Positions 1 through 24,676 of a stretch of DNA of 32,000 bases are shown piece by piece. The notes beneath the pieces are model-generated. The model did no database searches. It saw only the letters and a list, made by a program, of their open reading frames with translations, and was not told where the DNA came from. Position 1 is the stretch's first letter. Every line of letters begins with the position of its first letter. Location: assembly GCF_002335805.1 (NCBI RefSeq), contig NZ_NISU01000002.1, forward strand, positions 488,843 to 520,842, written 5' to 3'. The DNA is from Bacillus sp. FJAT-45350. Its GTDB lineage: Bacteria > Bacillota > Bacilli > Bacillales > NISU01. A program made the translations under genes and the position numbers.

Positions 1-1103
1 TTCATGGACTTGTACGTGACTCAGAAGGTAGAAAAATGAGTAAATCATTAGGAAACGGTGTCGATCCGATGGATGTTATCGACAAGTACGGTGCTGATGC
101 CCTTCGTTTCTTCCTAGCAACAGGAAGTTCCCCAGGAAATGACTTACGATTCTATTGGGAAAAGGTCGAATCTACTTGGAATTTTGCCAATAAAATTTGG
201 AACGCGTCACGGTTTGCACTAATGAATATGGACGGATTAAAATATGAGGAAATCGACTTCAGTGGCGAAAAATCTATTGCTGACAAATGGATTTTAACTC
301 GTTTACAAGAAACGATTAAAGATGTTACTCGCTTGACTGATGCCTATGAGTTCGGTGAGGTAGGACGTATTCTTTACAACTTCATTTGGGATGATTTCTG
401 TGACTGGTACATTGAGATGGCGAAGCTTCCGTTAAACGGAGAGGATGAGCAAGCGAAGAAAACTACTCGCTCAATTCTTGCTTACGTGCTTGATCAAACA
501 ATGCGCTTATTACATCCAATTATGCCGTTTATTACCGAGGAAATATGGCAGCATTTGCCGCACGATGGCGAATCAATTACAGTTGCTGCTTGGCCGCAGT
601 ACACTGAAAGTCTTGTGGACGAAGAAACAGTAAAGGATATGGCGTTGTTAAAAGAAATTATTCGCTCTGTTCGTAACACACGTGCTGAATTAAATGTTCC
701 AATGAGTAAAAAAATCGAGCTACATGTAAAAGCGAAGGATAAACAAGTGTTAGCTCAGCTTGAAAAAGGAAAAGGGTACATTGAGAAGTTCTGTAATCCA
801 GAACAATTAAAGCTAGGAGTAGATATACCAACTCCAGAAAAATCAATGTCACAAGTATTAACAGGAATTGAACTATTCCTACCACTAGCTGGTCTACTAG
901 ATTTAGACGCAGAAATTGCTCGACTTCAAAAGGAAGTAGACAAGCTAGACAAAGAAGTAGAACGAGTTCAAAAGAAACTAAGCAATCAAGGCTTTATTGC
1001 AAAAGCACCTGAGAATGTTATTGCAGAAGAAAAAGCAAAAGAGAAAGACTACGTAGAAAAACGTGCTGCAGTACAAGCGCGTATTGAAGAATTGAAAAAC
1101 TAA
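1..1103 (+). CDS. valS: valyl-tRNA synthetase, C-terminal part (5' end outside window)
   Basis: The frame is open from the window edge. [22 protein letters not shown] contains the class-I aaRS KMSKS loop. It has an anticodon-binding region and the C-terminal coiled coil ([19 protein letters not shown]) typical of ValRS. A hairpin with T-run follows. Confidence 0.95.
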
Positions 1104-1107
1104 GTAG

Positions 1108-1146
1108 GAAGGGGTGGCTCATTATTATGGGCACCTCTTTTTTTGC
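1108..1146 (+). terminator. intrinsic terminator after valS
   Basis: Imperfect GC-containing hairpin (gaaggggtggctc...gggcacctc) running into tttttttt immediately after the valS stop. Confidence 0.6.
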
Positions 1147-1212
1147 TGAGATATATTGGTATATAATAAAGGGGGATATAGTTGATTTAAAATGAAGGAG
1201 GGTTATATAGTA

Positions 1213-1761
1213 ATGAACTTACCTATAAAAAATCACATTACTCTTAAAGAATTCTACAAACTAAGAGAAGGTTCAGAAAGTAGGTTAGAATTCGTGGATG
1301 GTGTCGTTTATATGACTCCTTCACCTTCAACAATGCATCAACGAGTTTCTGGTAGATTGCATGCACAATTATTTACTTTACTAGACGGGAAGAATTGTGA
1401 GTTTTTCATGCCCCTTTCGATATAGAATTAAATAATAAAGGTATGGATGGAACAAAGATTGTCATTCCTGATCTATCCGGTATTTGCGATAAAAGTGGTT
1501 TAAATGAAAATAGATATGTTGGAGTCCCAACTGTCATTTTTGAAATTATTAGCCCTTCAAATCAATCGCATGACCTTGTTTTCAAGCTAAACCTTTATAT
1601 GGAGTACGGAGTAAAAGAATACTGGATAGTTAATCCATTACGTATATGTACTAGAAGAAAATAAGCAATATCGACAAATGGACATAGCAAAAGATAAAGG
1701 AACGATACAGTCGGCAGTTTTAGAAGGGTTTGCGGTGGATATAGAAAAGCTGTTTAGTTAA
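1213..1761 (+). pseudogene. Uma2-family (DUF820) restriction-endonuclease-like gene, disrupted by two frameshifts
   Basis: ORFs 1192-1425 and 1443-1664 are consecutive parts of one Uma2-like protein (LEFVDGVVYMTPSPSTMHQRVSGRL... / ...VPTVIFEIISPSNQSHDLVFKLNLYMEYGVKEYWIVNP). The frame of the second ORF reads through upstream as PFDIELNNKG, so there is a shift near 1405-1415. A third frame continues after about 1640 as VYVLEENKQYRQMDIAKDKGTIQSAVLEGFAVDIEKLFS* ending at 1761. The likely start is ATG 1213, downstream of AAGGAGG. Confidence 0.75.
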
Positions 1762-1774
1762 ACAAAAAGGGGAA

Positions 1775-1803
1775 CAAGGCCACTGAACACTTCAGTGACC
1801 TTG
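1775..1803 (-). terminator. hairpin between convergent genes; terminator of the minus-strand ATP-grasp cassette (possibly bidirectional)
   Basis: aaggccactgaa-cac-ttcagtgacctt forms a 12-bp stem with one mismatch. On the minus strand it is followed by ttcccctttttgttt. Confidence 0.6.
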
Positions 1804-1814
1804 GAAAAATAATT

Positions 1815-2678
1815 TTACCCGATCTCATTCAATCTTCTCATAATAAATTTCAAATATAGCTCAACAATATTAATCGAAGAAGTCGCACTAAGTGTTCTAC
1901 TTCCTACTACATCTTCAATTTCATTAAATAATAAATCCCCATGTTCATCTAGTAAAAAATCAATTCCTACTAGTCCAAAATCAAACATATTGATAATCCT
2001 ATCAATTAGCGATTTTTCTTTATCCGAAAGTTCATATAAAGTTGCCTCTCCTCCAAGAGTGAAATTTGCTTTAAAATCAGAATTAGAACTTCGTAATACA
2101 GCAGCAATGATTTCTTTTCCGATAACAAATACTCTGATATCTTTCCCAATAGTTCCTGCGAGTTTTTGAACAATGACCTCTTGATTTTCAAGCTTCTGCA
2201 CACAGTTTTCAAATTCATGTTCTGAGGTAACGAGATATACTTCCTTCCCACCTCTTCCTTTTGCTCCTTTAACGATAAACGGATAATCAAAGGTGATGGA
2301 GTGTGGTTCTGGAATTTCTAAAGGGAAGAAAAGTGTATCAACCATTGGGATGTTCGCTTGTGCCAAATATTGATGTGTTCTTCCTTTGTCATTACAAATT
2401 TCTGAAACAAAAGAAGAATTAAAAATAGGAATCCCAAGAAACTCGAGCTGTTTACTGAAGAAAGGGTCGAGTGTACGTACGATTGCAAAATCCGGTAAAG
2501 AAACAGTTTGTCCTTCATAAGAAACTGATAGACGATGAGTTTCTATCTTTAACAAAAATTGTTCTCTATATCGGAGGTGAATAGTGAGATTTAGCTTTTT
2601 CCCTTCCGCTATTACCCAATCAATATAGTGTTTGTTTCGGATAGCATCTTCCTTAGCGTAAATTAACCAACCGTTCAT
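1815..2678 (-). CDS. RimK-family ATP-grasp ligase, paralog 2 (287 aa)
   Basis: Collinear with E. coli RimK: PFIVKGAKGRGGKEVYLV, DIRVFVIGKEIIAAVLRSSNSDFKANFTLGGEA, LVGIDFL. The usual Mg-ligand triplet E-x-N reads NEIED (E-I-E) here. The start overlaps the upstream gene stop by 4 bp. Confidence 0.85.
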   Translation of the reverse strand: MNGWLIYAKEDAIRNKHYIDWVIAEGKKLNLTIHLRYREQFLLKIETHRLSVSYEGQTVSLPDFAIVRTLDPFFSKQLEFLGIPIFNSSFVSEICNDKGRTHQYLAQANIPMVDTLFFPLEIPEPHSITFDYPFIVKGAKGRGGKEVYLVTSEHEFENCVQKLENQEVIVQKLAGTIGKDIRVFVIGKEIIAAVLRSSNSDFKANFTLGGEATLYELSDKEKSLIDRIINMFDFGLVGIDFLLDEHGDLLFNEIEDVVGSRTLSATSSINIVELYLKFIMRRLNEIG

Positions 2679-3580
2679 TTTGACTCCTTTAACTTCTCAA
2701 TAATAAAATCAATCATTGTATCAGCCACGTTAATCCCTGTACAGTCAAAAATGCTTCGAATATGAGCATTGGAATTAACTTCACAAATGTAACGCTTGTC
2801 ATTTTCCCCAAACAATAAATCTACACCGGCAAAATTAGTTCCTAATGTACGAGAACAAGCAATGGCTAACTCTTTTTCTTCTTCAGAAGGAAAATAAGTC
2901 TCCATTTTTCCACCAGCACTAACATTTGCTCGAAAATCACTAGAAGATTTACGTATCATTGAAGCGACTATTTTCTCACCAACTACGTTTAGACGAATAT
3001 CCTTCCCGTGACTCGTTTGAATATATTCTTGCAATACATAGGGAGTTCCACCGAGTTGTTTGATCTTTACAAGTAGCGCTTCTGCATCCTCAATAAGATA
3101 GACTTGTTGCCCGAATGACCCATATGCCTCTTTGATAACAAGCGGATAACCTAGTTCTTCTCCTATTTGTCTATAAGGGGTGTCATCAATCACATCCATA
3201 CCTGAGAATATCATCGGCGCAATAATAGTTTTCGGGACAGGTAATTGGTGGTCAGCCAATACTTGATACATTCTTCCTTTATGGTCACATTTTTCAATTG
3301 AATCAGCTGAATTGAACACGGGTACTCCTAGGGCTTCTAACTGCCTAGCAAGGAGGATATCTTTGTCACCAAAAATAACAAAGTCTGGTTTTTTATGTTC
3401 AAATGGGCCTTTTATTGTTGATTTACCATTTTCCACTGTAACAAGGAGCTCATTATTTTTGATGATAATAGCTTCTATTCCTTTCCTACTAGCTGCCTCT
3501 TTAACCCAATTGGCAAAGTCCAAAAACTTTCCTTCTCTCAGGTTGCCATTATAGACAATCCAACCTTTTAATTTAGTCAT
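2675..3580 (-). CDS. RimK-family ATP-grasp ligase, paralog 1 (301 aa)
   Basis: Strong RimK-like motifs: YPLVIKEAYGSFGQQVYLI, QEYI, GKDIRLNVVGEKIVASMIRKSSSDFRANVSAGGK, FAGVDLLF, ICEVNSN. GAAAGGA RBS 7 nt before the ATG. 8-bp overlap (ATGACTAA) with the upstream gene. Confidence 0.9.
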   Translation of the reverse strand: MTKLKGWIVYNGNLREGKFLDFANWVKEAASRKGIEAIIIKNNELLVTVENGKSTIKGPFEHKKPDFVIFGDKDILLARQLEALGVPVFNSADSIEKCDHKGRMYQVLADHQLPVPKTIIAPMIFSGMDVIDDTPYRQIGEELGYPLVIKEAYGSFGQQVYLIEDAEALLVKIKQLGGTPYVLQEYIQTSHGKDIRLNVVGEKIVASMIRKSSSDFRANVSAGGKMETYFPSEEEKELAIACSRTLGTNFAGVDLLFGENDKRYICEVNSNAHIRSIFDCTGINVADTMIDFIIEKLKESK

Positions 3581-4244
3581 TTGTTAGTCCTTTCTTGTGT
3601 AACATCAAAATGATTTCTAGTAAGCAGTTATAGATGTTTGTAAATTGTGCTAGTCCATTTTCAATAGTCAGTAGACGCCAATTTATTTCAAGTTGTATTG
3701 TAGTAATTCCGCATTCCCGAGCAATTGTTGATGAAACAGTATTTGGATTTCCTGCAGTAAATATTTTATCCACTTCTACGTTTGAAATAGAAAATGTTGT
3801 GAAAACCTCAATGATATCATCAATTAAAGAAAAATTTCCAAATATATTTTTTCCACGAGCGGTTCCTATGTCAATATTGTAGTCTCGTTTACTGGACATG
3901 ATATGAAGATCTAATAGGAACTCGATATTGCTTTCTTTTACAATCGTGATGAGCATGTCTTTATAGGCGTTTTTCTCATCAAAGTTCGGATCATCATTGT
4001 TCATTTTTGTTTTATATAAACTAAAGCAGTTAGTTTCTTCATGAAGCAATTGAGCCAATACTCCTGTTGTATATTCCCCTTGTTTGACTTTTCCTTGACG
4101 TAGTTGAGGTACGCTATGAGGAGCGGAAACTAGAACAGGAATTGTACCTGGATGAAATAGAAAGTCAGTAGTTTCAGTCAAGTTCTCTTGAATAAAGCTT
4201 TCAATCATTAATTCAATTTGTTCTCTTTGTAATACCTTTTTCAT
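3573..4244 (-). CDS. N-formylglutamate amidohydrolase (FGase, PF05013-like) family zinc amidohydrolase/peptidase (223 aa)
   Basis: PVLVSAPHSVPQ...GEYTTG and IEFLLDLHIMSS resemble the FGase-family N-terminal His/Glu and central D-L-H metal-ligand motifs. The size fits the family. GAAAGGAAAAG RBS. Assigned by motif memory only. Confidence 0.6.
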   Translation of the reverse strand: MKKVLQREQIELMIESFIQENLTETTDFLFHPGTIPVLVSAPHSVPQLRQGKVKQGEYTTGVLAQLLHEETNCFSLYKTKMNNDDPNFDEKNAYKDMLITIVKESNIEFLLDLHIMSSKRDYNIDIGTARGKNIFGNFSLIDDIIEVFTTFSISNVEVDKIFTAGNPNTVSSTIARECGITTIQLEINWRLLTIENGLAQFTNIYNCLLEIILMLHKKGLTND

Positions 4245-4262
4245 ATCTTTTCCTTTCGTCCT

Positions 4263-6113
4263 TTAATCATTTGATATGCTTTCTCTAAGCTTTGAAAACG
4301 AGATATAAATTGACAAAGGGAGTAGGACACATATTAGCATAATCTTATATGAAAATGGAATGGGAATTGTAAAAGTAGTAAGGATGGCTGCCATCATTGA
4401 AAAAAATTGCATATTTAAGTTTTTTCTGAACAGATACCCAAGATCCCTTTCAATTTCTATTACTTTTCCTATATGTTTTAATCCAAGATCGGATCTGATA
4501 TGTGCTGGAATCCCTATTGAAACGTTCAAATTACTTTCTGAAGGAACAATATTGGTTTCTCGAGCTAAATCTAATGAGTTCATTACTAATACTCTAGCAG
4601 TAACTTTGTTTGAACGGTTACTAATTGTAATATTGTCCGTTTCTTCTAGCCCAAGTAATTTTAGAGAGTTTTCGGAAACACGAACAATATTACTTGGCTC
4701 ATCTGTAGAATATGGACGTATGACTTTTAGCTGTATCCGTTCCTGTCTAATGATAAATTCACTAATTTTTCTTGTCACAAATTTTTTTAAAGGCTCACGC
4801 TTTGACACTTTGTATTCACGTAAGGGAATTAAATGGGCATTTATATAGCCTGTTTTTTTCAAAATCTTCTTTATCTTCTCTCGTTCTAAATAATCTATTT
4901 TAGGTAATGCTTTTTCATTTGCATAGTAACCTTCAATAATTTTTGCATCATCTTTTGCATTTGAACAAAATCGTTGAAAATAAAAAGAACTAAGTGTATC
5001 TGGAGGTAATTCATAGTCTAGAAATTGTCGTTGTATGAAGCTAAGCTTAATTTCATTATCTTTTAATGTAGAGTCCCAATCTATTTTCGACTTATGAATA
5101 TCGAATGAAGCACCTGTACTACCATTCATTACCTCAAAAAACTCACAACCTTGTTCTTGGTCAAGAGAATCATAGATTGATTTTGAGACCATTACTTTCC
5201 CATCTTTAATAGATGTTACATTCATAGCCTTTACTTCTAAAAAAGAATACTTTTGATACTTCTGTATAAGAAGGAAAGAGGGGTGAGTATCTTGTAGTAA
5301 AAGCTTTTTCTTTGTTGACAGTGTCAGTCGAATTTCTTCCTCAGATAATGTATTATTGAGCTGAACTAAGCATCTTCTTGATAGACCATTTACTGGATTT
5401 ATCACTGTTACATAATCATTTTCTAGTAAGTCTAATGCTTCTAGCATTTCTTGTGATAGGTCTACACGGTGGTGTGGGAAGATAGATCCTCTTTTTGTTG
5501 ATAGTAAAAAGGGGTGAATTTGATTATTATTTTTCGTATCTATATTCTCAAGAAAGATGGCGATGGCTGATAGACATGGTAGTAGAGCGTGTACCTTGTG
5601 CTCAGTCTCTTCAGTAATAAATTTTTCAGGGATTTTTACTTGAATTGTATTTGTTTTGTCAAAGTTAGTTAAGGAGTTATTCTCAACAACGTCTGTAGAC
5701 AATCCATGGTCTCTCATAATCAAGCTTAGCCCTTGTGTAAGTGGGGAATTTTGGTTACTTTCAATAGTAACTGTATTATTTAAATTTTTCACCAGATCTA
5801 CTAAAATAACTGTTTCTATTTTCTCCTTTTTTATCAAATTTACTAACTTTTTATGAGCCTTGTCTGAAAAGAGACCTTCACTATGTTTACAATGATAAAC
5901 GGCATGACAGGAAGTGATGCGGTTGAGTGTTGTGGCCAAAAAGTAATCGATTGTATTTGCATAGGGAAAAGCGATAAGAACAGAGCTTGTACCTTTTATT
6001 GTTTTAAAAGGAGATAGCTGAAGTACTGGAGGTTTTACCTGGTGGAAATTAACTGCTGATTGTAATGTTTGATTATCAATATGAACATTCTTTTTTTCTA
6101 TCATAATAGACAC
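4263..6113 (-). CDS. membrane-anchored multidomain protein of unknown function (616 aa; probable true start ATG at 6104)
   Basis: Long uninterrupted ORF, first gene of the cassette. The track start is GTG with an RBS too close. ATG at codon 4 has AAAGGGTG 6 nt upstream. Residues about 40-125 align with the adjacent FGase protein but lack its His residues. Three repeats look like CDC48-N/VAT-N double-psi barrels (about 215-287, 305-382, 462-556). Two C-terminal TM helices lie at about 568-606. Confidence 0.8.
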   Translation of the reverse strand: MSIMIEKKNVHIDNQTLQSAVNFHQVKPPVLQLSPFKTIKGTSSVLIAFPYANTIDYFLATTLNRITSCHAVYHCKHSEGLFSDKAHKKLVNLIKKEKIETVILVDLVKNLNNTVTIESNQNSPLTQGLSLIMRDHGLSTDVVENNSLTNFDKTNTIQVKIPEKFITEETEHKVHALLPCLSAIAIFLENIDTKNNNQIHPFLLSTKRGSIFPHHRVDLSQEMLEALDLLENDYVTVINPVNGLSRRCLVQLNNTLSEEEIRLTLSTKKKLLLQDTHPSFLLIQKYQKYSFLEVKAMNVTSIKDGKVMVSKSIYDSLDQEQGCEFFEVMNGSTGASFDIHKSKIDWDSTLKDNEIKLSFIQRQFLDYELPPDTLSSFYFQRFCSNAKDDAKIIEGYYANEKALPKIDYLEREKIKKILKKTGYINAHLIPLREYKVSKREPLKKFVTRKISEFIIRQERIQLKVIRPYSTDEPSNIVRVSENSLKLLGLEETDNITISNRSNKVTARVLVMNSLDLARETNIVPSESNLNVSIGIPAHIRSDLGLKHIGKVIEIERDLGYLFRKNLNMQFFSMMAAILTTFTIPIPFSYKIMLICVLLPLSIYISFSKLRESISND

Positions 6114-6270
6114 CCTTTAACTATCTAATTGATTATTTAATGGAATATTTTAGAACTTTATTGAAGCCTTATAATCTATAGGATAAACTAACTATATCTT
6201 ATCAAGAGCTAGTCATTTCAAGCAATATGTAAATAATTAGTTTGTCACCAAGACAATGAGGAGGAAACAG

Positions 6271-7578
6271 ATGTTTCAGGATATAAACGAAGTACATTCA
6301 TATATTGAAAAAAGAAAGGAGGCTGGGATTCAGTTAGGGTTAGATAGAATGAAGAATTTACTTGAGTTTCTTGGCCATCCGCAAAAAGAAGTAAGGGCTA
6401 TTCACCTAGCAGGTACGAATGGAAAAGGCTCAACAATAAATTTTCTTAGAGAAATATTATTGAAATGTGATGTATCTGTCGGAGCTTTCACATCACCACC
6501 GATTCTAGGGATAACTGACCAAATATGGGTTAATGATGAGGCAATTAGTGATGATGGATTTGTTGAAGCAATGAATCAGTTCGCACCTAAGGTAGAAGAG
6601 TTTGAGGAAAAAGGAAATGAGCTCGTTACGGAGTTTGAATTTATGACTGCCTTTGCTTTTTATTATTTTGCTGAGGTTAACCCTGTTGACTTTCTTCTAT
6701 TAGAAACAGGACTTGGAGGAAGGGAGGATGCAACTAATCTTTGTACACCAATTCTTTCCTTGATTACAAATGTTTCTTTCGACCACATGCAAATACTTGG
6801 TAGGACGATTGAAGAGATTGCTATTGCTAAAGCGGGGATTATTAAACAAGGAATTCCTATTATCACAACGGAAGAAACAAAGGAAGCCTTAGCTATTTTT
6901 GAAAATGAAGCAAATGAAAAAGGTAGCGGATTTTATTCACTAGGAGAAAATTTTCAAATTAAAAATGTGCTAGTAGCAAATGATGTCCAAACGTTTTCTT
7001 TTCTCGGTCCATATTTTGAGACGAAGGAAATTGAGCTAACGATGAAAGGTGTACATCAAATAAAGAATGCGTCCCTTGCGATTATGGCGGTTTCCTATCT
7101 AAAAGAAAAACAACTAATCAATGTTGATGAAGCTAAATTAAAAGAAGGTCTAAAGAAAGCACAATGGCGAGGTAGAATGGAAACGGTTAATACTGAGCCA
7201 CTCGTAATTCTAGATGGTGCACATAATGAGGGCGGGACTCATGCACTTGCACAAGCATTAGAAAAGCATTACCCCGATAAAAAAATTCATGTTATTTTTG
7301 CAGCGACAAAGGAAAAAGATGTTGAGAGTCTCCTTAAGCCGATTTACCCACTTGTAGAGCAAGTTTGTTTTACCTCGTTTCAGTTTCCACGAGCAGCTAA
7401 ATCAAGTGAAATGTTTAATCAGTCTAGCTTCGAAAATAAAATAGATGAAGATAACTGGAAAGCGGCGGTGAAATGGAAATTAGCGACAATGCAAGATAGT
7501 GAAATGCTTGTCATTACAGGGTCACTATACTTTATATCAGAAGTAAGAAGATTCTTTAGTGAAAAAATTGTAAATTAG
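6271..7578 (+). CDS. folC: bifunctional folylpolyglutamate synthase / dihydrofolate synthase
   Basis: Mur-ligase P-loop HLAGTNGKGST, the DHMQILG motif, and ILDGAHNEGG. The track ORF starts at 6256, but ATG 6271 lies 5 nt after AGGAGGA and gives an MF... N-terminus like B. subtilis FolC. Confidence 0.9.
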   Translation: MFQDINEVHSYIEKRKEAGIQLGLDRMKNLLEFLGHPQKEVRAIHLAGTNGKGSTINFLREILLKCDVSVGAFTSPPILGITDQIWVNDEAISDDGFVEAMNQFAPKVEEFEEKGNELVTEFEFMTAFAFYYFAEVNPVDFLLLETGLGGREDATNLCTPILSLITNVSFDHMQILGRTIEEIAIAKAGIIKQGIPIITTEETKEALAIFENEANEKGSGFYSLGENFQIKNVLVANDVQTFSFLGPYFETKEIELTMKGVHQIKNASLAIMAVSYLKEKQLINVDEAKLKEGLKKAQWRGRMETVNTEPLVILDGAHNEGGTHALAQALEKHYPDKKIHVIFAATKEKDVESLLKPIYPLVEQVCFTSFQFPRAAKSSEMFNQSSFENKIDEDNWKAAVKWKLATMQDSEMLVITGSLYFISEVRRFFSEKIVN

Positions 7579-7656: not shown

Positions 7657-9333
7657 ATGGTGAGAGAGATGAAGGGTTCAATTCAAGCTGTCATGTGGAT
7701 TATGTGGACAGCTGCATTAGCAGCGTATGTGTACTTATTCGTCTCTTTTCCGTTCTCACACGCCGACCCTTACGGCCTTTTTGACTATATAATATTTGGA
7801 TTATTAGCAATATTAGTTTCCTTTTTTCCTATTTTTTACCGGGAGTATTCTATTGTCATATTTCAATGGGTATCATTAGCAAGCTTTTTGCTATTTGGTA
7901 TATTCGTAGAGATTATTATTACCCAAATTGCTGTATTAACAACAGTTATCATTACAGGGATTAATCGCCATAGCTTATATCGGATACCAATGAATTCTAT
8001 TATGTTTCTCTTATCTTCTATTGCATCAGCAGCGGTCTATTATAGCATCCTTACTCTTTTCTCAGTGTTACCTGAAACGATGTTGACGATAATTGGGGCT
8101 TTTGCATACGGTATTACATTTATTATCGTAAATCATCTTGGGATTTTCTTTATAAGGAACGTACTTAGAAAAATTCCTTCAAAGTTCTTTACGAAAGGGT
8201 TTAATACAGAGCTTACTCTCGGATCGCTAGTGTTGCCGATTGGGGTAATAGTCGTGATGCTATATAGTGAAATTGGAAGGATAGCTGCTGTCTACATGGG
8301 GTTTTCTTTTATCGGTATGTCGTTAATCTTTAAGTTATATCATGAGAGCCGACGCTTAAACAAAAAATTAAAAGAAGTTAGTTTATTCGGTTATGAGTTA
8401 GGGGCTTGCTTAAATCGAAAAGAACTAGTGGGACTTTTTCTACAAAAACTAAAACAAATATTTACTCTTGACGCAATCCATATATATCGTATTACTAACG
8501 GAGAAATGAAGCTAGTTGAAGTATATAACCAAGAAGGAACAACTCTAAATGAAGAACTTATTAAGCAAGTTAGTCTTGCTACTTTTGAAGAGAAAAAAGC
8601 GCAAATTCGAAAGAATAAAAAATCAATTCTTTCAGTACCGGTGTATCAGAAAAATGATTTTACAGCGATTGTTACAATCGCGTTAAATGAAGAACGAGCT
8701 TTTCAAAAATGGCATCAGATGATCTTAGAAATAATGACAAACTATTTAGCTGTTGCAATGGATAACGCTACTTATTATGAAAAGAAAAAAGATGAGAGTG
8801 AGCGCTGTCATTTAACAGGACTGTACAACATTCGTTATTTCGAAAGAGCACTTGAGAAGGAAGTTGTGGCTAGTATTAGCAAGAACGAGAAATCGTCTGT
8901 CATTTTACTAGACCTCGACCATTTTAAAAAAGTAAATGACACATATGGCCATCAAGCAGGAAACGATGTTCTATGTAATCTAGCAAACATCTTAATTCAA
9001 GCCACAGATGACAAGGGTATTGTAGCTAGGTACGGTGGGGAAGAATTTGTAGTACTTCTTCCTAATACAGCAGAAATTGAAGCAAACCTAAAGGCTGAAT
9101 CGATAAGACAGACAATAGAAGAACATCCTTTTGTAGTGAAAAATGACTTAGAAAACGGGGAGTCAGTAACGATTCAAATCACTGCCAGTATCGGTGTAGC
9201 GACAAGTATTGCAGATGAATCAAGTCCAATGGCCCTATTGCGGAATGCTGATAGAGCGATGTATACAGGGGCGAAGCAGAAGGGACGGAATAAGGTGGCT
9301 GCTTATGCACCAGTTAGGGCAGAGATAACCTAA
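7657..9333 (+). CDS. multi-pass membrane GAF-GGDEF diguanylate cyclase
   Basis: About 6-7 N-terminal TM helices and a central GAF-like segment (...ILEIMTNYLAVAMDNATYYEK). The C-terminal GGDEF domain has LTGLYNIRYF, DLDHFKKVNDTYGHQAGN, an intact GGEEF and RNADRAMYTGAKQKGRN. There is no RxxD I-site five residues before GGEEF (KGIVARYGGEEF). An alternative start is at 7669. Confidence 0.9.
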   Translation: MVREMKGSIQAVMWIMWTAALAAYVYLFVSFPFSHADPYGLFDYIIFGLLAILVSFFPIFYREYSIVIFQWVSLASFLLFGIFVEIIITQIAVLTTVIITGINRHSLYRIPMNSIMFLLSSIASAAVYYSILTLFSVLPETMLTIIGAFAYGITFIIVNHLGIFFIRNVLRKIPSKFFTKGFNTELTLGSLVLPIGVIVVMLYSEIGRIAAVYMGFSFIGMSLIFKLYHESRRLNKKLKEVSLFGYELGACLNRKELVGLFLQKLKQIFTLDAIHIYRITNGEMKLVEVYNQEGTTLNEELIKQVSLATFEEKKAQIRKNKKSILSVPVYQKNDFTAIVTIALNEERAFQKWHQMILEIMTNYLAVAMDNATYYEKKKDESERCHLTGLYNIRYFERALEKEVVASISKNEKSSVILLDLDHFKKVNDTYGHQAGNDVLCNLANILIQATDDKGIVARYGGEEFVVLLPNTAEIEANLKAESIRQTIEEHPFVVKNDLENGESVTIQITASIGVATSIADESSPMALLRNADRAMYTGAKQKGRNKVAAYAPVRAEIT

Positions 9334-9505: not shown

Positions 9506-10570
9506 ATGAAAAAACTTTTATTCTATCAAAGTATTACATTCGCTTTTATTTTTTCTGTTTTGTTTATTGTGTTCGTATTTGGTTCAATGGAACAAACGAT
9601 GTTCTCTAAAGAAAAGGGTCAACGTGTATCTACAAATCACACATTTAAGCACATAGCGGATAATGTTCAAACGGAAGATGTAGGTGAACAAAGGAGAGCT
9701 GCTATTATTCGGGAACCAATTCGTATTGTTTTTGCTGGTGATTTGATGATGAGTGGCTCGATTGTACATACCGTTGAAACACATGGAGTTGATTATCCTT
9801 TTCACTATGTACGAGATGAGATTAAAGAGGCGGATTATGCAGTCGTTAACCTTGAGACAGCAGTTACGACAAGAGGGGAGTCATTTGCATATGACAAACA
9901 GTTTACCTTCAAAATGCCTCCACATTACCTAGAAGGAATAAAAAATGCTGGCTTTGATATGGTTTCGTTAGCTAACAATCATACAATGGATTACCGAGAA
10001 GAGGGACTTATAGATACGATAAATTATTTGAAGGAATACGAGATTGATTACATTGGAGCAGGCGAAAATAAAACGGAAGCTTATAAAGCTCACTTTGTTG
10101 ACATTAAAGGCAAAAAGGTTGCGTTCTTAGGATTTTCACGAGTACTCCCTACTGGTACATGGTATGCGCAAGAGAATAAGCCAGGAATAGCAAGTGGCTA
10201 TCAGCTTGATAGAATGGAACGTATAATTAAGAAGACAAAGAAAAAAGCAGACTACGTACTCGTCTATATCCACTGGGGAATTGAACGACAGCAAACTCCT
10301 GAACAATACCAAGTGAATAAAGGAAAAGCAATGATAGACGCTGGTGCTGATGCTATTATTGGAGCTCACCCACATGTACTACAACCAATTGAAGAGTATA
10401 AAGGCAAGCCAATTGCATATTCATTAGGAAATTTTTTATTTCCTGACTATGTTAGTGGACCAACAGCGGAGACGGGACTGTTGACGCTTGTGTTGGATGG
10501 GGATGAGGTTGGTTATGAGTGGAGGGAGTATGTGATTACTAATGATCAAATACACCCCGTCGGTGAGTAA
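9506..10570 (+). CDS. CapA/PgsA-family (metallophosphatase-fold) membrane-anchored protein
   Basis: N-terminal TM helix. Family motifs FAGDLM, VVNLETAVT, LANNHTMDYREEGL, IHWGIE, GAHPHVLQP and SLGNFLF. Confidence 0.85.
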   Translation: MKKLLFYQSITFAFIFSVLFIVFVFGSMEQTMFSKEKGQRVSTNHTFKHIADNVQTEDVGEQRRAAIIREPIRIVFAGDLMMSGSIVHTVETHGVDYPFHYVRDEIKEADYAVVNLETAVTTRGESFAYDKQFTFKMPPHYLEGIKNAGFDMVSLANNHTMDYREEGLIDTINYLKEYEIDYIGAGENKTEAYKAHFVDIKGKKVAFLGFSRVLPTGTWYAQENKPGIASGYQLDRMERIIKKTKKKADYVLVYIHWGIERQQTPEQYQVNKGKAMIDAGADAIIGAHPHVLQPIEEYKGKPIAYSLGNFLFPDYVSGPTAETGLLTLVLDGDEVGYEWREYVITNDQIHPVGE

Positions 10571-10764: not shown

Positions 10765-11751
10765 TTAATATATTACGTTAATCGATCCATCTAGTATGCC
10801 CCACTCATTTATATCGTAGTGGTATTCATATTGAAGTGCAGGAGGACAAAGCAGGTTGTTGTTTTCAATAAGATAGGAATATGGTTTCCAGGAGCCGTTT
10901 ACATTGAGATAAGGAGTTCCTCTGACACAAACATTTGTCCCACTACCGTTAAAGTTAATTGGTGATTTAAAGTATGCATCACCAGATACGGTAAGAAGTC
11001 CATTACTCCCATTAAAGGTTAGGTCACTTTCAAAAAATGCATTACCACCAATCATGAGTACTCCATTACCTCCAATAACAACAGGTCTAGTGAAATGAAC
11101 GGAAGAAAATAACTGTGACCGACTATTACCGGATAAGCTCACGTTAGTTGTATATTTTTGTAAAGGTAAATCATTTGGATCGACAGGTATGCCGCCATTT
11201 TCTACAGGTTCATTACCTGTTTGGTAGGACCCTTTATTTTCAATGTTAAAAGTGACCACAACATCTTTTACAGACTTTGAAATATTTTCAGTAATTCCTG
11301 TACTTCTAATTTCAATCAACATATTTTTAAAATCAGTACAATTATTAGTATTAGTTGTAGTTTTAGAATTGATGATAATAGGTGCATTGTAATCAATGTC
11401 ATAGGTATAGCTTGAATTTGATTCAAATGAGAATTGTTTAGGTAAAGAAGTTGACTGTAACCTGTTTCTAATTTTTTCACAAAAGATCCGATCGTTGTTA
11501 ACGGTCTTAATATTTGGGTCTGCTTTTGCCTCTTTTATGGCCATTGCAATTTCGCTTTCTATTAAGGCAACCGAATATTGAATTCCCATCTCTGCTATGT
11601 CTTTTGCTTGAGTCATGGATTCTGTTTTTCCTATTTGTAAAGCAGTATTTAACGTTTTTGAAAAGAGAAGAGGTGCAAAGATCATAATTAAGACGATTGT
11701 TAATAGAACGAGGAGTAACGTATAACCACGTTCATTCATGATAGATTTCAT
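10765..11751 (-). CDS. PilX/GspK-like minor pilin-like protein (328 aa, no Glu5)
   Basis: The N-terminus MKSIMNERG/YTLLLVLLTIVLIMIF resembles a class III signal peptide but lacks Glu at +5. Last gene of the minor-pilin sub-operon. GGAGG RBS. Confidence 0.6.
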   Translation of the reverse strand: MKSIMNERGYTLLLVLLTIVLIMIFAPLLFSKTLNTALQIGKTESMTQAKDIAEMGIQYSVALIESEIAMAIKEAKADPNIKTVNNDRIFCEKIRNRLQSTSLPKQFSFESNSSYTYDIDYNAPIIINSKTTTNTNNCTDFKNMLIEIRSTGITENISKSVKDVVVTFNIENKGSYQTGNEPVENGGIPVDPNDLPLQKYTTNVSLSGNSRSQLFSSVHFTRPVVIGGNGVLMIGGNAFFESDLTFNGSNGLLTVSGDAYFKSPINFNGSGTNVCVRGTPYLNVNGSWKPYSYLIENNNLLCPPALQYEYHYDINEWGILDGSINVIY

Positions 11752-13010: not shown

Positions 13011-14795
13011 TTAAGGACATTGGTTAAACGATTTATAAATAGTAGTATTAATTTTTAACCCGAAGTCATTTTGTTTTAGGTTACCACAAATTCTCTGGTT
13101 ATTTTCATTATTTTCAATAGTGGATGAACCGTCTTTTGTTAGTACACCTCCTTCTCCTAAAAACTCCATATCTTGGACATATAACTTATCTGAAGAGTTG
13201 GAGCTAGTCATTCTAAAGTCAACACTTTCTGCGTTTCCTGAATTTCCAGACCCAGTAGAATTTAATACTGCTCTATTCGCTTTTATATAGCCTCTACTGA
13301 ATATATCAATTCTTTTTACTGCCGTTAACTTGGAACCTTCCATTTCTATATTATTGCCATTTAGAGATATATAACTGTGTTGACTATTACCATCACTAGT
13401 AAAGTCAGCTCCATTAATTATTATGTCACCATTAGTGGATGTAAGTGTAATTGATTGGTTTCCATTGACGGTCCCAGTGATTTGAACTCCTTCTTCGACG
13501 ACTACACCTAAGGGAGCTGAATATTCTATTACACTTTCTTCAAATTTAACTGTCCCAACGCTACTTGTTATAATCAACTTCTGATTAGTATTTTCTGCAG
13601 TTAATATAATTTTAGGTTGTAAAGGTACAATAGTCTGATTTCCTTCAGAATCTTCTTCAATTACATAGCCTGGTTTAAAATTAGAGTTTGCATCTGTTAC
13701 ATTAAATCTTCTTTGTTTACTAGTTATTTTACACTCAACTTTTGCCGTAATTAAAATTTCGTCCCCGCTAGCAATTGAATGTGTAAGCTGGATTTGATGC
13801 TCTCCAGGGGAAATAAAATTGGTTTCAATTGTAAATGTGTTATTGTTCACTCTCTCAATGGTGATTTTTGCAGGAGCAGAATCATGATTGATAATGGTTA
13901 CACTATTGTCTCCTGCCTTTGGAATATTTTTTAACCCAGGTGGTTTTGTAATTTCAGTTATAGAACCACAGGAGTTACTAATAATAAAAGTTACTGGAAT
14001 ACTTAGTCGCTTATTATCAGCTTTAGCCCATATAACGATTTCATCATTATCTTTTAACAAAGGTACAGGAATATTGTGGCTACCACTACTATAATAATTT
14101 TCTTGGGTATCAACATTTATTCCATTTATAGTAATTATAAACTGCACATCATGGCTATCATTATTATGAATGGTAAGAGTAGCATCACCAATAGAAGGTT
14201 CATGTTCCAATGTAGGTGTTTTAGTCTGATCTAATAAAGCATCTTCTTTTTGAAGTAAAGAAAAGGATATAATTTCTTTAATATTATTTTGGAAAGTTAA
14301 TTCAAGACTAACCTGATGAAATGTTGACAAATTTCCACTATGACAAAGTTGTTCATTGTTGATAAGGGAAGGCGAACTCCAAGAAAAAATTCTAATGTCT
14401 TCTGCTACAACATAAGGGCTTAATATTTGCTCTTGACCTTCTCGTTCTATTTCTTTGACTAAAATTCCATCAGTTCCAGCTTCAGGTAAATAATATTCTC
14501 CTTGGTTTGTAGAAAGAACAAAACCACAATTCCCATTGATGTTTTCTGTTTCTATTAGCTTGTTACTTTTATAAAATAAGTTATCTACTAGTTGATTTTT
14601 CAATATCCTTGTATCTAATCGTTCCTGTGAATTTGTAGAAAGGATGTTATTAAAGGTAAAACTTTGAACTATTAAAGCATAGCTTCCTGCAATAACAAAA
14701 CCAATGATAGTAAGAGCGGCAAGGAGTTCTATGATGGTTATCCCTTTCGAGTTAAAATAAGGAAAGAATGTACCTTTACGTTTCATGATACTCAT
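13011..14795 (-). CDS. large modular type IV pilin (594 aa) with grafted repeat and beta-helix-like modules
   Basis: Class III signal ...FNSKG/ITIIELLAALTIIGF. The likely start is ATG 14786 (MKRKG...), 10 nt after GAAAGG. Two tandem repeats of about 80 aa lie at residues about 192-272 and 283-365. The C-terminus is G/N/S-rich and repeat-like. The terminal Cys570...Cys593 pair resembles a pilin D-region. Confidence 0.8.
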   Translation of the reverse strand: MSIMKRKGTFFPYFNSKGITIIELLAALTIIGFVIAGSYALIVQSFTFNNILSTNSQERLDTRILKNQLVDNLFYKSNKLIETENINGNCGFVLSTNQGEYYLPEAGTDGILVKEIEREGQEQILSPYVVAEDIRIFSWSSPSLINNEQLCHSGNLSTFHQVSLELTFQNNIKEIISFSLLQKEDALLDQTKTPTLEHEPSIGDATLTIHNNDSHDVQFIITINGINVDTQENYYSSGSHNIPVPLLKDNDEIVIWAKADNKRLSIPVTFIISNSCGSITEITKPPGLKNIPKAGDNSVTIINHDSAPAKITIERVNNNTFTIETNFISPGEHQIQLTHSIASGDEILITAKVECKITSKQRRFNVTDANSNFKPGYVIEEDSEGNQTIVPLQPKIILTAENTNQKLIITSSVGTVKFEESVIEYSAPLGVVVEEGVQITGTVNGNQSITLTSTNGDIIINGADFTSDGNSQHSYISLNGNNIEMEGSKLTAVKRIDIFSRGYIKANRAVLNSTGSGNSGNAESVDFRMTSSNSSDKLYVQDMEFLGEGGVLTKDGSSTIENNENNQRICGNLKQNDFGLKINTTIYKSFNQCP

Positions 14796-15945: not shown

Positions 15946-17130
15946 TTGTTTGAATTTATCATACCAGTAATTTCCGCACTACTTGTTTTCTTACTACTTG
16001 TTTTCATACCTTTAAAAATTAGTACAAAAATGTTAGTACAGATCGTCTTTATTTCGTTTTTAATGATCGTGCTTTCCTATCTATTATATGTGCTATATTC
16101 TTTTGCGTTTGCTTTTGGAGGATTCCTTATCCTATTACTCTTGTTTTCTTATATCATAGGCAAGCAGTTAGATTATGCGAAGAATTTTATTGAAGCAGAT
16201 GAGTCTGAGTTTTTTCAGAAAACAGAAAAATTAACAATACAGACTTCTGAATCGAAAGAAGAAAACGTATCAAGTGGAAAATTGGATCAAAAGAAGATTG
16301 ATTTGATGTTTAGTGAGGCTCCAGGTGAGGATAAAGTCACTACTGATAAAACAGAACATGATGAAGAGCATAATACTCATGAAGATAGTTCTGATGTGGA
16401 TTCGTTAGCAGAAGAAGATATCCATAAAGAACCAGTAGAATTGGGTAGCCTAGGTTATGATAAAATTGATAGTGATACAGACGATAAATTAGATGAGTAT
16501 AAATTAGACATTGATGATCAACAGGGAATGGATTCTATACAAGAAGAGCCATCAGGGGACCTTAACGAAAATCAATTCAACAAGATAGAGCAGGACGATA
16601 ATGACTATAACGTTAGCGAAAAAGATTTGAATGAACATGATAGCGTAGAAGAAGAGAAGCTTAATGACGGGTTCCTTCGAGTTCCTTCAGAAGAGTTCCT
16701 AGAGGAAAGTGGAGAGTTTGATAGTGGTGAACAGGAAATTGAAGATATTTATCATTCACGTTCTAGAGAAATGTTTATTAGTGATGAAAATGATGAAGGT
16801 GATGAGGATTCACTCATGCCTCGTTCATTAGAAGAAGAGGACGATGATGAAACTACTTTATTAGGAAGGCAGTTTGCTGATGAAGGCGAATCACTTCCGC
16901 CAAGAATAAGCTCTGAATTAGATGAACTTGATGAAATACCTGCAAGTGAGCGGAATATAGAAAAAATGTTAGAAGATCTTGAATCGGGTGAAAAAGAGGT
17001 AGAGCCTGAAAAGAATAATACTCATCCAAAAAAAGAGGAAATAGATGATTTAGGGAACAGTATTATGTTGAAACGTAGTGAGTTATTTGCACAATTAGAA
17101 GAAGATGAAGATGAGAAAAAACGTAGGTAA
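15946..17130 (+). CDS. membrane-anchored, extremely acidic (D/E-rich) low-complexity protein (394 aa)
   Basis: TTG start 5 nt after GAAGAGGTG. Two to three N-terminal TM helices are followed by about 300 aa dominated by D/E/S/K with no recognisable fold. First gene of the plus-strand pilus operon. Confidence 0.7.
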   Translation: MFEFIIPVISALLVFLLLVFIPLKISTKMLVQIVFISFLMIVLSYLLYVLYSFAFAFGGFLILLLLFSYIIGKQLDYAKNFIEADESEFFQKTEKLTIQTSESKEENVSSGKLDQKKIDLMFSEAPGEDKVTTDKTEHDEEHNTHEDSSDVDSLAEEDIHKEPVELGSLGYDKIDSDTDDKLDEYKLDIDDQQGMDSIQEEPSGDLNENQFNKIEQDDNDYNVSEKDLNEHDSVEEEKLNDGFLRVPSEEFLEESGEFDSGEQEIEDIYHSRSREMFISDENDEGDEDSLMPRSLEEEDDDETTLLGRQFADEGESLPPRISSELDELDEIPASERNIEKMLEDLESGEKEVEPEKNNTHPKKEEIDDLGNSIMLKRSELFAQLEEDEDEKKRR

Positions 17131-20330: not shown

Positions 20331-20345
20331 GAGGGGGAAATGTTG

Positions 20346-22591: not shown

Positions 22592-22727
22592 GGAAATGAA
22601 ATAGGTAAATTGATTCAAGGATAGTTGATTATTTGTTGATTAATTACAATTAATTGCGATAATCAGTTAAAATTGTGACTAATTTCCCATGCTTGAGTAA
22701 TGTAGGTATGGTACTATTAGGTTGTAA

Positions 22728-22800
22728 ATAAATAGGATGCGATGAAGGGGAATCTGTATGTGGGCACTTGGATTACCTAGAGCAAGTAGTGCAACCGGCC
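22728..22800 (+). promoter_or_regulatory. c-di-GMP-II-type riboswitch aptamer, copy 1 (upstream of pilA)
   Basis: ...gatgaagggg...tgtGGGCACTTGGattacctagagCAAGTAGTGCAACCGGCC carries the blocks I recall as the c-di-GMP-II core (UGGGCACUUG-hairpin-AGUAGUGCAACCGACC). It is about 70 percent identical to a second copy at 24568-24640, and the internal hairpin is preserved (cttg/caag versus cttg/cgag). Confidence 0.7.
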
Positions 22801-22836
22801 AATTTTGTATACTGATACGAAGTTGGTTATTTTTTG
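22799..22836 (+). terminator. expression-platform terminator of riboswitch copy 1
   Basis: ccaattttgtat / atacgaagttgg forms a 12-bp stem (2 G-U pairs) with a 4-nt loop, then ttatttttt. The 5' arm starts inside the last aptamer nucleotides. Confidence 0.7.
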
Positions 22837-24500: not shown

Positions 24501-24567
24501 AACTTTAATTTACTATATGTAAATAACTGTTTCATAAATTATGCACGTCATGTACAATAATAGTTAA

Positions 24568-24640: not shown

Positions 24641-24676
24641 AATTTTGCTTGAGGATAGCAAAGTTGGTTTTTTTTT
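24639..24676 (+). terminator. expression-platform terminator of riboswitch copy 2
   Basis: ccaattttgct / agcaaagttgg forms an 11-bp stem with a 7-nt loop, followed by nine T residues. Confidence 0.8.

Follow-up and report, generated by a model that had tools for sequence, protein, structure and literature searches.

A conserved Firmicute module built on an FGase/PghP-type amidohydrolase and a membrane-anchored partner, with RimK-type ligases as add-ons: a candidate glutamyl-tail editing system

Poly-alpha-glutamylation of ribosomal protein S6 by RimK, which works with RimA and RimB in Pseudomonas, pairs an ATP-grasp ligase (PF08443) with a tail-removing hydrolase. The LysX/ArgX-LysW-LysK system also combines a RimK-family ligase with a metallo-hydrolase, here one that releases the product. 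Glutamate tails of cofactors are built by a gamma-ligase and sequential RimK-type alpha-ligases, the enzymes concerned being FolC, CofE/CofF (F420), MptN (tetrahydrosarcinapterin) and MyfA/MyfB (methylofuran). MyfA and MyfB are ATP-grasp glutamate ligases that act sequentially on one cofactor tail (PMC8141765) and provide a precedent for a ligase pair. An analogous logic can be seen in tubulin polyglutamylation, where TTLL initiases and elongases would correspond to two ATP-grasp writers and CCP to an eraser of carboxypeptidase fold; that system is eukaryotic and its ATP-grasp and peptidase families differ from those described below.

We analysed a stretch of 32,000 nucleotides (the window) from Bacillus sp. 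FJAT-45350. It carries a cassette of four minus-strand ORFs, M, A, L301 and L287 in transcription order, with the following features and context:

1..1103, plus strand: 3' part of valS, flanking the unit
1192-1761: frameshifted Uma2-endonuclease pseudogene between valS and the cassette
1775..1803, minus strand: operon-closing hairpin, 13-bp stem, -19.3 kcal/mol, z = -4.67 against shuffles
1815..2678, minus strand: L287, divergent RimK-family ATP-grasp ligase, WP_096202797.1, 287 aa
2675..3580, minus strand: L301, canonical RimK-family ATP-grasp ligase, WP_096202798.1, 301 aa
3573..4244, minus strand: A, FGase/PghP-superfamily metallo-amidohydrolase, WP_096202799.1, 223 aa
4263..6104 (to 6113 with the GTG), minus strand: M, membrane-anchored partner protein, WP_096202800.1
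6256..7578, plus strand: folC, housekeeping folylpolyglutamate synthase, divergent from M

The ORF list exactly matches the layout given by the first-pass annotation, with a gap of 18 nt between M and A and overlaps of 8 nt (A/L301) and 4 nt (L301/L287), valS and folC flanking the whole. The closing hairpin that it had noticed (1775-1803, minus strand) is also real and is probably the intrinsic terminator of the operon; directly downstream lies UUCCCCUUUUUGUUU. It escaped a consensus terminator scan, since the T-run begins 7 nt past the stem. The NCBI model of M (613 aa) begins at ATG 6104, with an AAAGGG ribosome-binding site 8 nt before it; read from GTG 6113, which falls within AAAGGG, the ORF has 616 aa. 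Residue numbers of M are given below in the 616-aa (GTG-start) numbering.

Both ligases belong to the RimK family, as had been proposed (Pfam RimK, 6.9e-39 for L301 and 4.1e-23 for L287). L301 passes the TIGR00768 cutoff of 143.4 bits with 196.5 bits and L287, at 137.2 bits, is slightly below it. The ATP-grasp catalytic motifs are kept in both clades and the closest solved structures are RimK and LysX/ArgX. Scores fall far under the NCBIfam equivalog cutoffs for RimK (98 against 331 bits), LysX (136 against 276, the second-best NCBIfam match), MptN (128 against 350) and CofF (76 against 300). The predicted Mg ligands of L301 are D254 and a canonical E-x-N, E267-V-N269 (nt 2774-2782). In L287, D240 is followed by E253-I-E255-D256 (nt 1914-1922), aligned to the RimK 'mEvNs'. 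This confirms the E-I-E seen by the first-pass annotation, and 14 orthologues carry the motif NE[IVLM]ED.VG.R without exception; judged from these alignments, E-x-E is the invariant signature of an ancient second clade and not a defect. Paralogue order is invariant across loci, the L301-type first and the L287-type second, and the two are usually translationally coupled. They are two ancient, non-redundant, distinct conserved ligase clades.

The 223-aa A of the window itself matched no Pfam model, neither that of PghP nor that of FGase, and 26 of the 39 members of its family match PF05013 (FGase). Its predicted model (pLDDT 96.7) has as top structural matches PghP 3a9l (E 1.7e-7) and the FGase-family structures 2odf and 2q7s, at 12-16% sequence identity. 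The fold also resembles, though less well, the MurNAc-L-Ala amidases CD27L and CwlD. Residues invariant in the family include H43, D85, N87, D112, H114 and E186. A is thus, as first suggested, of FGase type: a divergent FGase/PghP-superfamily metallo-amidohydrolase. This superfamily cleaves amides with glutamate on the amine side, formyl-Glu for FGase and gamma-Glu-Glu for PghP. Neither A nor the ligases carry a signal peptide or a transmembrane segment. Compared with PghP/YndL and the N-formylglutamate amidohydrolase HutG, A is cytoplasmic and chromosomal rather than a secreted or phage enzyme, and the cassette comes with neither a hut operon nor pgsBCA.

The family of M is uncharacterised; it falls into 274 clusters at 50% identity, and no Pfam or NCBIfam model covers it. 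The AF2 model of M, of moderate confidence (pLDDT 72), shows the following parts, all on the minus strand:

5514..6026, residues ~30-200: A-like alpha/beta domain, P-Y replacing P-H43 and D-L-V replacing D112-L-H114
5079..5477, residues ~213-345: first double-psi-type beta-barrel, motif RV(D/E)L...L.ENDYV.I.NP
4749..5039, residues ~359-455: helical linker, invariant Q361-R362-x-F364...E368-x-P-P
4446..4736, residues ~460-556: second double-psi beta-barrel, CDC48-N/VAT-N type
4287..4418, residues ~566-609: C-terminal transmembrane helical hairpin, basic residues on both sides

The N-terminal domain, found in the long form of M, matches the poly-gamma-glutamate hydrolase YndL (Foldseek, 5onj, TMt 0.51). 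At the sequence level the A and M families are weakly related (hhalign, E 1.8e-4, probability 48%). Since A's catalytic residues are missing, this A-like domain is a catalytically dead pseudo-enzyme domain, a feature that the first-pass annotation did not include. Within the family, conservation is highest in the second barrel (RPY..DE...VR.S...M.LLG.EE.D ... GIPA..R..LG). This barrel matches p97-N (Foldseek, E 1.7e-5) and the double-psi barrel 7dg9 (TMt 0.75), with sub-cutoff Pfam hits to CDC48_N (6.4e-4) and Molydop_binding (1.6e-4). The transmembrane hairpin is conserved across the family and, because basic residues flank it on both sides, the bulk of M lies in the cytoplasm; M is anchored C-terminally. 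These predictions agree with the membrane-anchored protein with peptide-binding-type barrels described initially. The -(S/T)ND ends also remarked upon are present, both proteins ending in -ND, but are not conserved in either family and therefore carry no signal.

A survey of co-occurrence found all four genes together in 13 other loci, in about a dozen other organisms. Four-gene loci are the window, L001-L006, L008, L013, L014, L056 and L057, with L059 probable; the L059 contig breaks off behind its first ligase gene. The genes are arranged in five ways: M-A-L-L, M-A with inverted L-L, A-L-L-M, L-L-M-A and A-M-L-L, the last of these in short-form loci. Co-occurrence despite this shuffling indicates a functional unit. 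In the short-form clade (38 metagenome loci), M is immediately preceded by A in every case where the contig covers the flank, apart from L050 and L052, whose matches to M are weak and partial; ~25 of the 38 have no ligase. In contigs of the L030 type, from gut metagenomes, a single 654-aa ORF joins M to an A whose motifs are intact. A locus may have no writer at all, the RimK pair with or without a FolC-like paralogue, or this paralogue alone. A and M are thus the invariant, near-always adjacent core and the two RimK-type ligases are add-ons. As A and M are adjacent or fused and often ligase-free, M is on current evidence the partner of the hydrolase, not a scaffold or substrate of the ligases. 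The cassette is a real, conserved, undescribed Firmicute module, an elaborated form of a two-gene core. The 'writer/writer/eraser' set first proposed remains the most economical reading of the four genes, but the unit is not at bottom a ligase cassette of four genes, and the initial interpretation is overall partly supported.

We found no published description of this gene combination or pathway, consistent with the initial statement that it was not a recognised one. The RimK system lacks both the second, non-redundant E-x-E-D ligase and the membrane partner, its eraser is a retropepsin whereas that of the cassette has the FGase/PghP fold, and the cassette has no link to rpsF. In comparison with LysX/ArgX-LysW-LysK, the hydrolase is FGase/PghP instead of M20; as the first-pass annotation had also noted, neither a LysW-like carrier gene, rpsF nor a small precursor ORF lies in or beside the cassette, and no lysine or arginine pathway genes were found there. 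The cofactor-tail systems have no dedicated hydrolase or membrane protein, whereas the cassette has both.

What the module shares with the cofactor-tail systems is a recurring FolC-family paralogue (FolC2), above the TIGR01499 cutoff and distinct from housekeeping FolC, together with folC or purU neighbours. FolC2 has joined the module in two independent architectures: as gene five of the operon in Sutcliffiella horikoshii and in one Bacillus genome, and directly 3' of A-M in the unrelated contig L058. The three paralogues share 45-59% identity with each other, ~27% with housekeeping FolC, and the signatures VTGSKGKGS and LDG(A/S)I(H/N). In Paenibacillus thermotolerans, distant from valS/folC, a purU gene (equivalog match to PurU at 412 bits) precedes A by 45 nt. 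A recurring FolC-like third ligase with folate genes points to a cofactor-tail acceptor, which the first-pass annotation had left out of account; the glutamate tail of folate coenzymes is our preferred candidate, with about one chance in three. Several observations count against it. The DGAHN motif of FolC2 has lost its His, so the enzyme may not use folate or glutamate; in Bacillaceae the nearness of folC may reflect inherited synteny and would then amount to a single event; a neighbouring folate gene, or any other visible cofactor link, is missing from most short-form loci; and a membrane tether for a folate-tail enzyme lacks rationale. In one lineage (L009, L010) a PlsC-type acyltransferase gene precedes A-M in tight coupling, a hint that the substrate may rather be a lipid.

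Other explanations were weighed. In protein polyglutamylation of the RimK or TTLL/CCP style, the ligases would start and extend a chain on a protein and A would be the deglutamylase, the CDC48-N-type barrels of M presenting the substrate at the membrane or M being itself the acceptor. The founding RimK member modifies S6, the nearest ligase structures act on protein C-termini, CDC48-N-type double-psi barrels are protein/peptide recognition modules, and RimK/RimB and TTLL/CCP share a writer/eraser logic. We nevertheless think it rather unlikely: the C-termini of M and A vary, a weak test (4 against 10 sequences) found no acidic or lysine position of M specific to ligase-containing loci, rpsF, a LysW-like gene and small ORFs are absent from the neighbourhood, the ligase-free loci retain A-M, and one recurrent member is a FolC-type ligase, a type not known to act on proteins. 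Still less probable is modification or recycling of an envelope precursor, with residues added to the lipid II stem peptide (at the D-iGlu alpha-carboxyl or the diaminopimelate carboxylate) or to a lipid head group, A as amidase and M tethering the enzymes. M is always anchored with its bulk where lipid-linked precursors arise, and the amidase-like fold of A, the gain of a Mur-ligase-superfamily gene and the acyltransferase fit this reading; gamma-D-Glu substrates are universal, which would account for ligase-free loci. The gained ligase, however, scores as FolC (239-261 bits) and not as MurC-F (30-64 bits), the conserved neighbours include no further cell-wall gene, the acyltransferase link is limited to one lineage, and the module's hosts differ in peptidoglycan chemotype.

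A slim chance is left to the synthesis and turnover of an oligo- or poly-amino acid that is free in the cytoplasm, for instance poly-alpha-glutamate or a branched product made as by a split cyanophycin synthetase; it would be used for storage, as an osmolyte or to buffer charge, and A would be its depolymerase. We know of no such polymer reported in these genera, A-M loci without ligases would be substrate-less, and the membrane anchor would have no obvious reason. Such a polymer would suit the several hosts that, judged from their names, are alkaliphilic or halotolerant, and the combination of an ATP-grasp with a Mur-type ligase recalls how the domains of cyanophycin synthetase are put together (HMM similarity is weak); RimK can polymerise free glutamate, and MyfB does so in vitro (PMC8141765). 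Anti-phage defence or other mobile cargo inserted between valS and folC is disfavoured and most improbable, even though this uncharacterised multi-gene unit adjoins a decayed Uma2 endonuclease gene and was at first called a 'foreign block'. That description does not hold: GC content (0.30-0.39) is like that of the flanks (0.32-0.41), many other Bacillaceae, across genera, carry the cassette at this valS/folC site, with folC and M head-to-head in most Bacillaceae loci, and searches of 72,556 plasmids and 50,697 phage records gave no homologue of M. Neither an integrase nor repeats nor a tRNA were seen, and PADLOC returned no defence-system match for the cassette.

The explanation that we prefer for the whole, with moderate confidence, is a system that edits glutamyl tails on the cytoplasmic side of the membrane: the cassette probably adds glutamate tails to an acceptor and removes them. 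M would hold A at the inner membrane face, its double-psi barrels binding substrate or regulating A, and in long-form M the dead A copy probably docks the active one. Both ligases would add amino acids, judged by family membership most likely L-glutamate, onto a free carboxylate of the acceptor. They may work sequentially, by initiation then elongation or by making two different linkages or adding two different residues, and A would strip what they add, the length or type of the acidic tail being set by ligases versus A. Should folate be the acceptor, housekeeping FolC would be the universal writer and A-M a deconjugase tethered to the membrane, with the RimK pair and FolC2 acting as tail diversifiers, analogous to CofE/CofF, MptN and MyfA/MyfB.

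The cassette lies between valS, which ends at 1103, and folC, which starts at 6256. It consists of four genes:

4263-6113, minus strand: M, ORF of 616 aa from a GTG, a membrane-anchored partner protein
3573-4244, minus strand: A, ORF of 223 aa, a hydrolase of the FGase/PghP superfamily
2675-3580, minus strand: L301, ORF of 301 aa, a RimK-type ATP-grasp ligase
1815-2678, minus strand: L287, ORF of 287 aa, the second RimK-type ligase

The tight spacing described in the first-pass annotation was reproduced (an 18-nt gap between M and A, overlaps of 8 nt between A and L301 and of 4 nt between L301 and L287), as was the closing hairpin at 1775-1803, which has a 13-bp stem (-19.3 kcal/mol, z = -4.67) followed by a U-rich stretch. 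For M, the ATG at 6104, 8 nt after AAAGGG, is a likelier start than the GTG and gives a protein of 613 aa; residue numbers used here are those of the 616-aa form. M, A, L301 and L287 are 100% identical to WP_096202800.1, WP_096202799.1, WP_096202798.1 and WP_096202797.1, respectively, named by NCBI as hypothetical (M and A), RimK family/ATP-grasp (L301) and ATP-grasp (L287). No small carrier or precursor ORF was found in the intergenic regions flanking the cassette. Upstream of it, Rfam scans (gathering thresholds on the window and seven loci; E <= 1 on window positions 1000-6400) detected no riboswitch or leader, the only matches being T-boxes of valS and c-di-GMP-II riboswitches that are unrelated. 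When the folC-M intergenic regions of six genomes were aligned, no common operator or promoter motif emerged. The interval between valS and the cassette carries a Uma2-family endonuclease pseudogene (1192-1761, plus strand), frameshifted into three ORFs (1192-1425, 1443-1664 and 1678-1761).

The neighbourhood survey showed that the four genes do occur together outside this genome. Long-form M (558-644 aa, carrying an N-terminal domain) is accompanied by A and both ligase types in Alkalihalobacillus sp. BA299, Ureibacillus xyleni, U. endophyticus, Pseudoneobacillus rhizosphaerae, Neobacillus niacini, Sutcliffiella horikoshii, Bacillus sp. Marseille-P3661, another Bacillus genome, Paenibacillus thermotolerans and several MAG contigs. 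The order is M-A-L-L in most of these loci; Ureibacillus has M-A with an inverted L-L pair, Paenibacillus A-L-L-M and one further locus (L057) L-L-M-A, and the L301-type gene precedes the L287-type gene in every case. That the four genes stay together despite this varied order argues strongly that they form a functional unit. All long-form loci except that of Paenibacillus occupy the valS/folC position, folC being usually head-to-head with M. The cassette had been seen as a foreign block between valS and folC; its GC content (0.30-0.39) is the same as that of its flanks and its position is shared, so it is rather an old resident of the locus than a recent insertion. The adjacency to folC in Bacillaceae may represent a single inherited event.

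Short-form M, which has no N-terminal domain, was surveyed in 38 metagenome loci belonging to one clade only (440-aa M). Wherever the flank is present, A lies directly upstream of M, except in two loci with a weak partial M (L050 and L052). The ligase pair follows in 8 of the 38 and is absent from about 25. In human-gut contigs, A and M are fused in one protein of 654 aa with the hydrolase motifs intact (L030, 5254-7218; also L032-L040, L045 and L046). No other neighbour recurs at short-form loci: NrdD, CTP synthase, ABC transporters, DAHP synthase and others show no common theme. Since A and M are constant and the ligases often absent, we consider A plus M as the invariant core and the ligases as a frequent add-on. 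A decayed module is also seen at L055 (5333-7690), where A and an L301-type gene precede an L287-type gene that is frameshifted, and M is missing.

M matches no Pfam or NCBIfam model, sub-threshold Pfam hits being confined to residues 462-513 (CDC48_N, 20.3 bits against a cutoff of 35.1; Molydop_binding, 22.1 against 26.8). In its model, which is of moderate confidence (pLDDT 72), Foldseek comparison suggests an N-terminal alpha/beta domain (about 30-200) resembling the PGA hydrolase YndL and two barrels (about 213-345 and 460-556), the second of the p97/CDC48-N double-psi type (p97-N, E 1.7e-5, probability 1.0; DPBB domains 7dg9 and 7di0, TMt 0.75-0.78). A helical linker and two C-terminal helices complete the model. 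These helices make up a hydrophobic hairpin flanked by basic residues, which bears out the proposed membrane anchoring and indicates that M is cytoplasmic and anchored by its C-terminus. The N-terminal domain is weakly linked to the A family by profile-profile comparison (E 1.8e-4, probability 48%), and the catalytic His positions of A are not kept (P-Y and D-L-V in M); we therefore read it as a dead copy of A. Exhaustive profile search gathered an M family of 274 clusters at 50% identity (120 below 1e-30), most members having 380-480 aa and lacking the N-terminal domain. The -(S/T)ND C-termini previously singled out in M and A are conserved in neither family and were rejected as a signal.

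A itself has no Pfam or NCBIfam match, and no match to PF05013 (FGase) at E <= 0.1. Of 39 A-family members, 26 match PF05013 (best 5.4e-10) and a single one matches PF05908 (PghP/YndL), at 0.006. The AF2 model of A is very confident (pLDDT 96.7) and best resembles the phage poly-gamma-glutamate hydrolase PghP (3a9l, E 1.7e-7, TM 0.58/0.62), followed by the FGase-family structures 2odf (E 8.3e-7) and 2q7s (2.3e-5), then by other enzymes of carboxypeptidase or amidase fold. Six residues are invariant in the family (H43, D85, N87, D112, H114 and E186). We conclude that A is a divergent branch of the FGase superfamily. The initial call of an FGase-type amidohydrolase is supported at the level of the superfamily. 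Characterised FGase/PghP members cleave amides to the amino group of glutamate, in formyl-Glu or in gamma-Glu-Glu. Neither the window nor any of the related loci contains hut genes, the context of HutG, and sequence searches of PDB chains with A, the A family profile and M returned nothing meaningful. A has no signal peptide. A is cytoplasmic. Its partner M is obligate and anchored in the membrane, is at times fused to A, and has barrels of a kind that binds proteins or ligands.

Both ligases pass the PF08443 cutoff of 21 bits, in agreement with their assignment to the RimK family: L301 with 133.9 bits (6.9e-39) and L287 with 82.4 bits (4.1e-23). With the RimK-family model TIGR00768 (cutoff 143.4), L301 scores 196.5 and L287 falls narrowly below, at 137.2. 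The nearest solved structures are RimK, LysX and ArgX for both. L301 has canonical Mg ligands (D254, E267-V-N269). In L287 the unusual E-I-E noticed earlier is indeed present, as D240 and E253-I-E255-D256, with Glu replacing Asn of the E-x-N triad. Among 14 L287-type orthologues NE[IVLM]ED.VG.R is invariant and the other ATP-grasp motifs are kept, so that E-x-E is a feature of the clade and not decay. The L301-type clade carries the signature CEVNSN, and the ligases fall into two ancient clades. Neither is RimK proper (S6--L-glutamate ligase, NF007764; 97.9 and 58.9 bits against a cutoff of 331) nor LysX/ArgX (135.7 and 92.2 against 275.6); the scores were likewise low for MptN (127.8 against 350) and CofF (76 against 300), whose cofactors are, to our knowledge, lacking in the Firmicutes hosts. 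Gene context agrees: there is no rpsF in the cassette neighbourhood, and neither a small carrier ORF nor lysine or arginine pathway genes nearby.

A further ligase was found at three loci. Sutcliffiella horikoshii and one Bacillus genome have an additional, fifth gene, which encodes a FolC-like paralogue (FolC2) and abuts or overlaps the end of the L287-type gene, the normal folC lying on the opposite side of the cassette. On an unrelated contig, L058, a divergent A-M pair is directly followed by FolC2, with no RimK genes and with argS upstream instead of valS. FolC2 thus occurs in two architectures:

L006, 10352-11767: FolC2 gene, normal folC also present
L013, 10425-11759: FolC2 gene, normal folC also present
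L058, 4386-5627: FolC2 gene

The three FolC2 score 260.8, 238.7 and 255.8 bits with TIGR01499 (cutoff 162.65) and share 45-59% identity, with only about 27% to housekeeping FolC. SPHL/NERI are kept, the P-loop reads GSKGKGS and LDGAHN is changed to LDG(A/S)I(H/N), a warning that the substrate of FolC2 may have changed. In Paenibacillus thermotolerans, the cassette lies away from valS/folC, 45 nt downstream of purU (412 bits), which encodes formyl-tetrahydrofolate deformylase. Around the constant A-M the writer set (tail-adding ligases) therefore varies: it is absent, consists of the RimK pair with or without FolC2, or is limited to FolC2.

The window contains other features:

7657-9333 (plus): membrane GGDEF (diguanylate cyclase) gene, after folC
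9506-10570 (plus): CapA/PGA_cap-family protein (PF09587, 272 bits)
10765-11751 (minus), 13011-14795 (minus) and 15946-17130 (plus): sizeable ORFs of 328, 594 and 394 aa, no Pfam match at 1e-5, placed after the CapA-like gene and before the pilus cluster
18675-22591: type IV pilus/T2SS ATPase and platform genes
22726-22809 (plus): c-di-GMP-II aptamer (RF01786, 75.4 bits), upstream of a pilin-like N_methyl protein (22915-23454)
24566-24649 (plus): c-di-GMP-II aptamer (RF01786, 71.5 bits), upstream of a prepilin peptidase (24784-25542)

The aptamers adjoin the pilus genes, and this hints at a Gram-positive type IV pilus or competence-like cluster under the control of c-di-GMP. A GGDEF gene is also beside folC in L001, L005, L006 and L013, and in Pseudoneobacillus (L004) it comes directly after the second ligase. 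Regulation by c-di-GMP is known for the RimK of Pseudomonas. The CapA-like gene lies 3.4 kb from a PghP-like hydrolase; it is not near the cassette at other loci, so this proximity is probably coincidental.

All functional readings of the module are drawn from family membership and gene context. On this basis it would work like the pairs that add and remove acidic tails, RimK/RimB, LysX/LysK, TTLL/CCP and FolC with gamma-glutamyl hydrolase. Yet it belongs to none of these systems in particular: all equivalog tests failed, and rpsF, lysW, hut and pgs, as defining context genes, are absent. The first-pass annotation had recognised no described pathway or defence system, and this stands. A defence or mobile-element role is essentially excluded and was dropped: none of the four proteins matched a PADLOC-DB family, M has no homologue in plasmid and phage collections (tblastn), and the composition is that of the flanks. 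A full-text literature search for RimK/ATP-grasp together with FGase/PghP found no paper, the amidoligase survey of Iyer et al. 2009 lying outside its scope. Apparently undescribed are the M family, its pairing and fusion with A, the dead-hydrolase domain of M, the ligase clade with E-x-E-D and the FolC2 subfamily.

Known relatives of RimK-type and FPGS-type ligases add glutamate to a carboxylate. On the inner side of the membrane, the ligases of the module would accordingly build a tail of the glutamate type, which A would trim. L301 and L287 may act in sequence or as a hetero-complex, and the dead A-like domain of M could serve to dock active A. The acceptor, the molecule carrying this tail, might be a protein, as in polyglutamylation. 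Against this stand the unconserved C-termini, the lack in M of any conserved residue specific to ligase-containing loci that could be a modification site, the missing carrier ORF and the existence of ligase-free A-M loci. A lipid-linked envelope precursor would fit the membrane anchoring of M. In one metagenome lineage, moreover, the gene of a 415-aa PlsC-type acyltransferase (PF01553, without a match in NCBIfam) lies upstream of A-M in tight coupling (L009, 6750-7997; L010, 5371-6618), a possible hint at a lipid substrate; it is absent from the sister contigs L011 and L012, and the extra ligase found elsewhere is FolC-like, not Mur-like. A free polymer is a further candidate.

We favour, tentatively and as a reading still some way short of probable, a Glu-terminated cofactor tail of the folate type, for which CofE/CofF, MptN and MyfA/MyfB are precedents. 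With housekeeping FolC as the universal writer, A-M loci devoid of ligases make sense, and the reading accounts also for FolC2 and for the proximity of folC and purU. It gives no reason why M is anchored in the membrane. A more specific and more doubtful version is that the module edits folate polyglutamate tails, A-M being a membrane-tethered deconjugase and the RimK-type pair with FolC2 writing non-standard tails, alpha-linked or otherwise modified. We know of no bacterial gene assigned to folylpolyglutamate deconjugase activity, and alpha-glutamyl folate extensions were reported biochemically decades ago.

The module links two well-known chemistries, the ligation of amino acids by ATP-grasp enzymes and the hydrolysis of glutamyl amides by enzymes of carboxypeptidase fold, to the M family, which ranges from spore-forming soil bacilli to human-gut and other metagenome contigs. 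E-x-E-D is an unusual conserved variant of the ATP-grasp active site. Whichever the acceptor, two to five genes make up a clean, testable system, whose architectures form a natural series: the core by itself, the fused core, the core with the RimK pair, and addition of FolC2. If a protein or an envelope precursor is the acceptor, the module would represent a novel kind of bacterial modification, post-translational or of the cell wall, whose eraser (tail-removing hydrolase) is built in. If it is a cofactor tail, regulated deconjugation and non-canonical glutamylation of bacterial folates would follow, with a bearing on folate retention, cross-feeding and antifolate action. Should folate-tail editing be true, it would provide a gene family for alpha-glutamyl folate extensions and a means of approaching how far gut Firmicutes retain or release folate.
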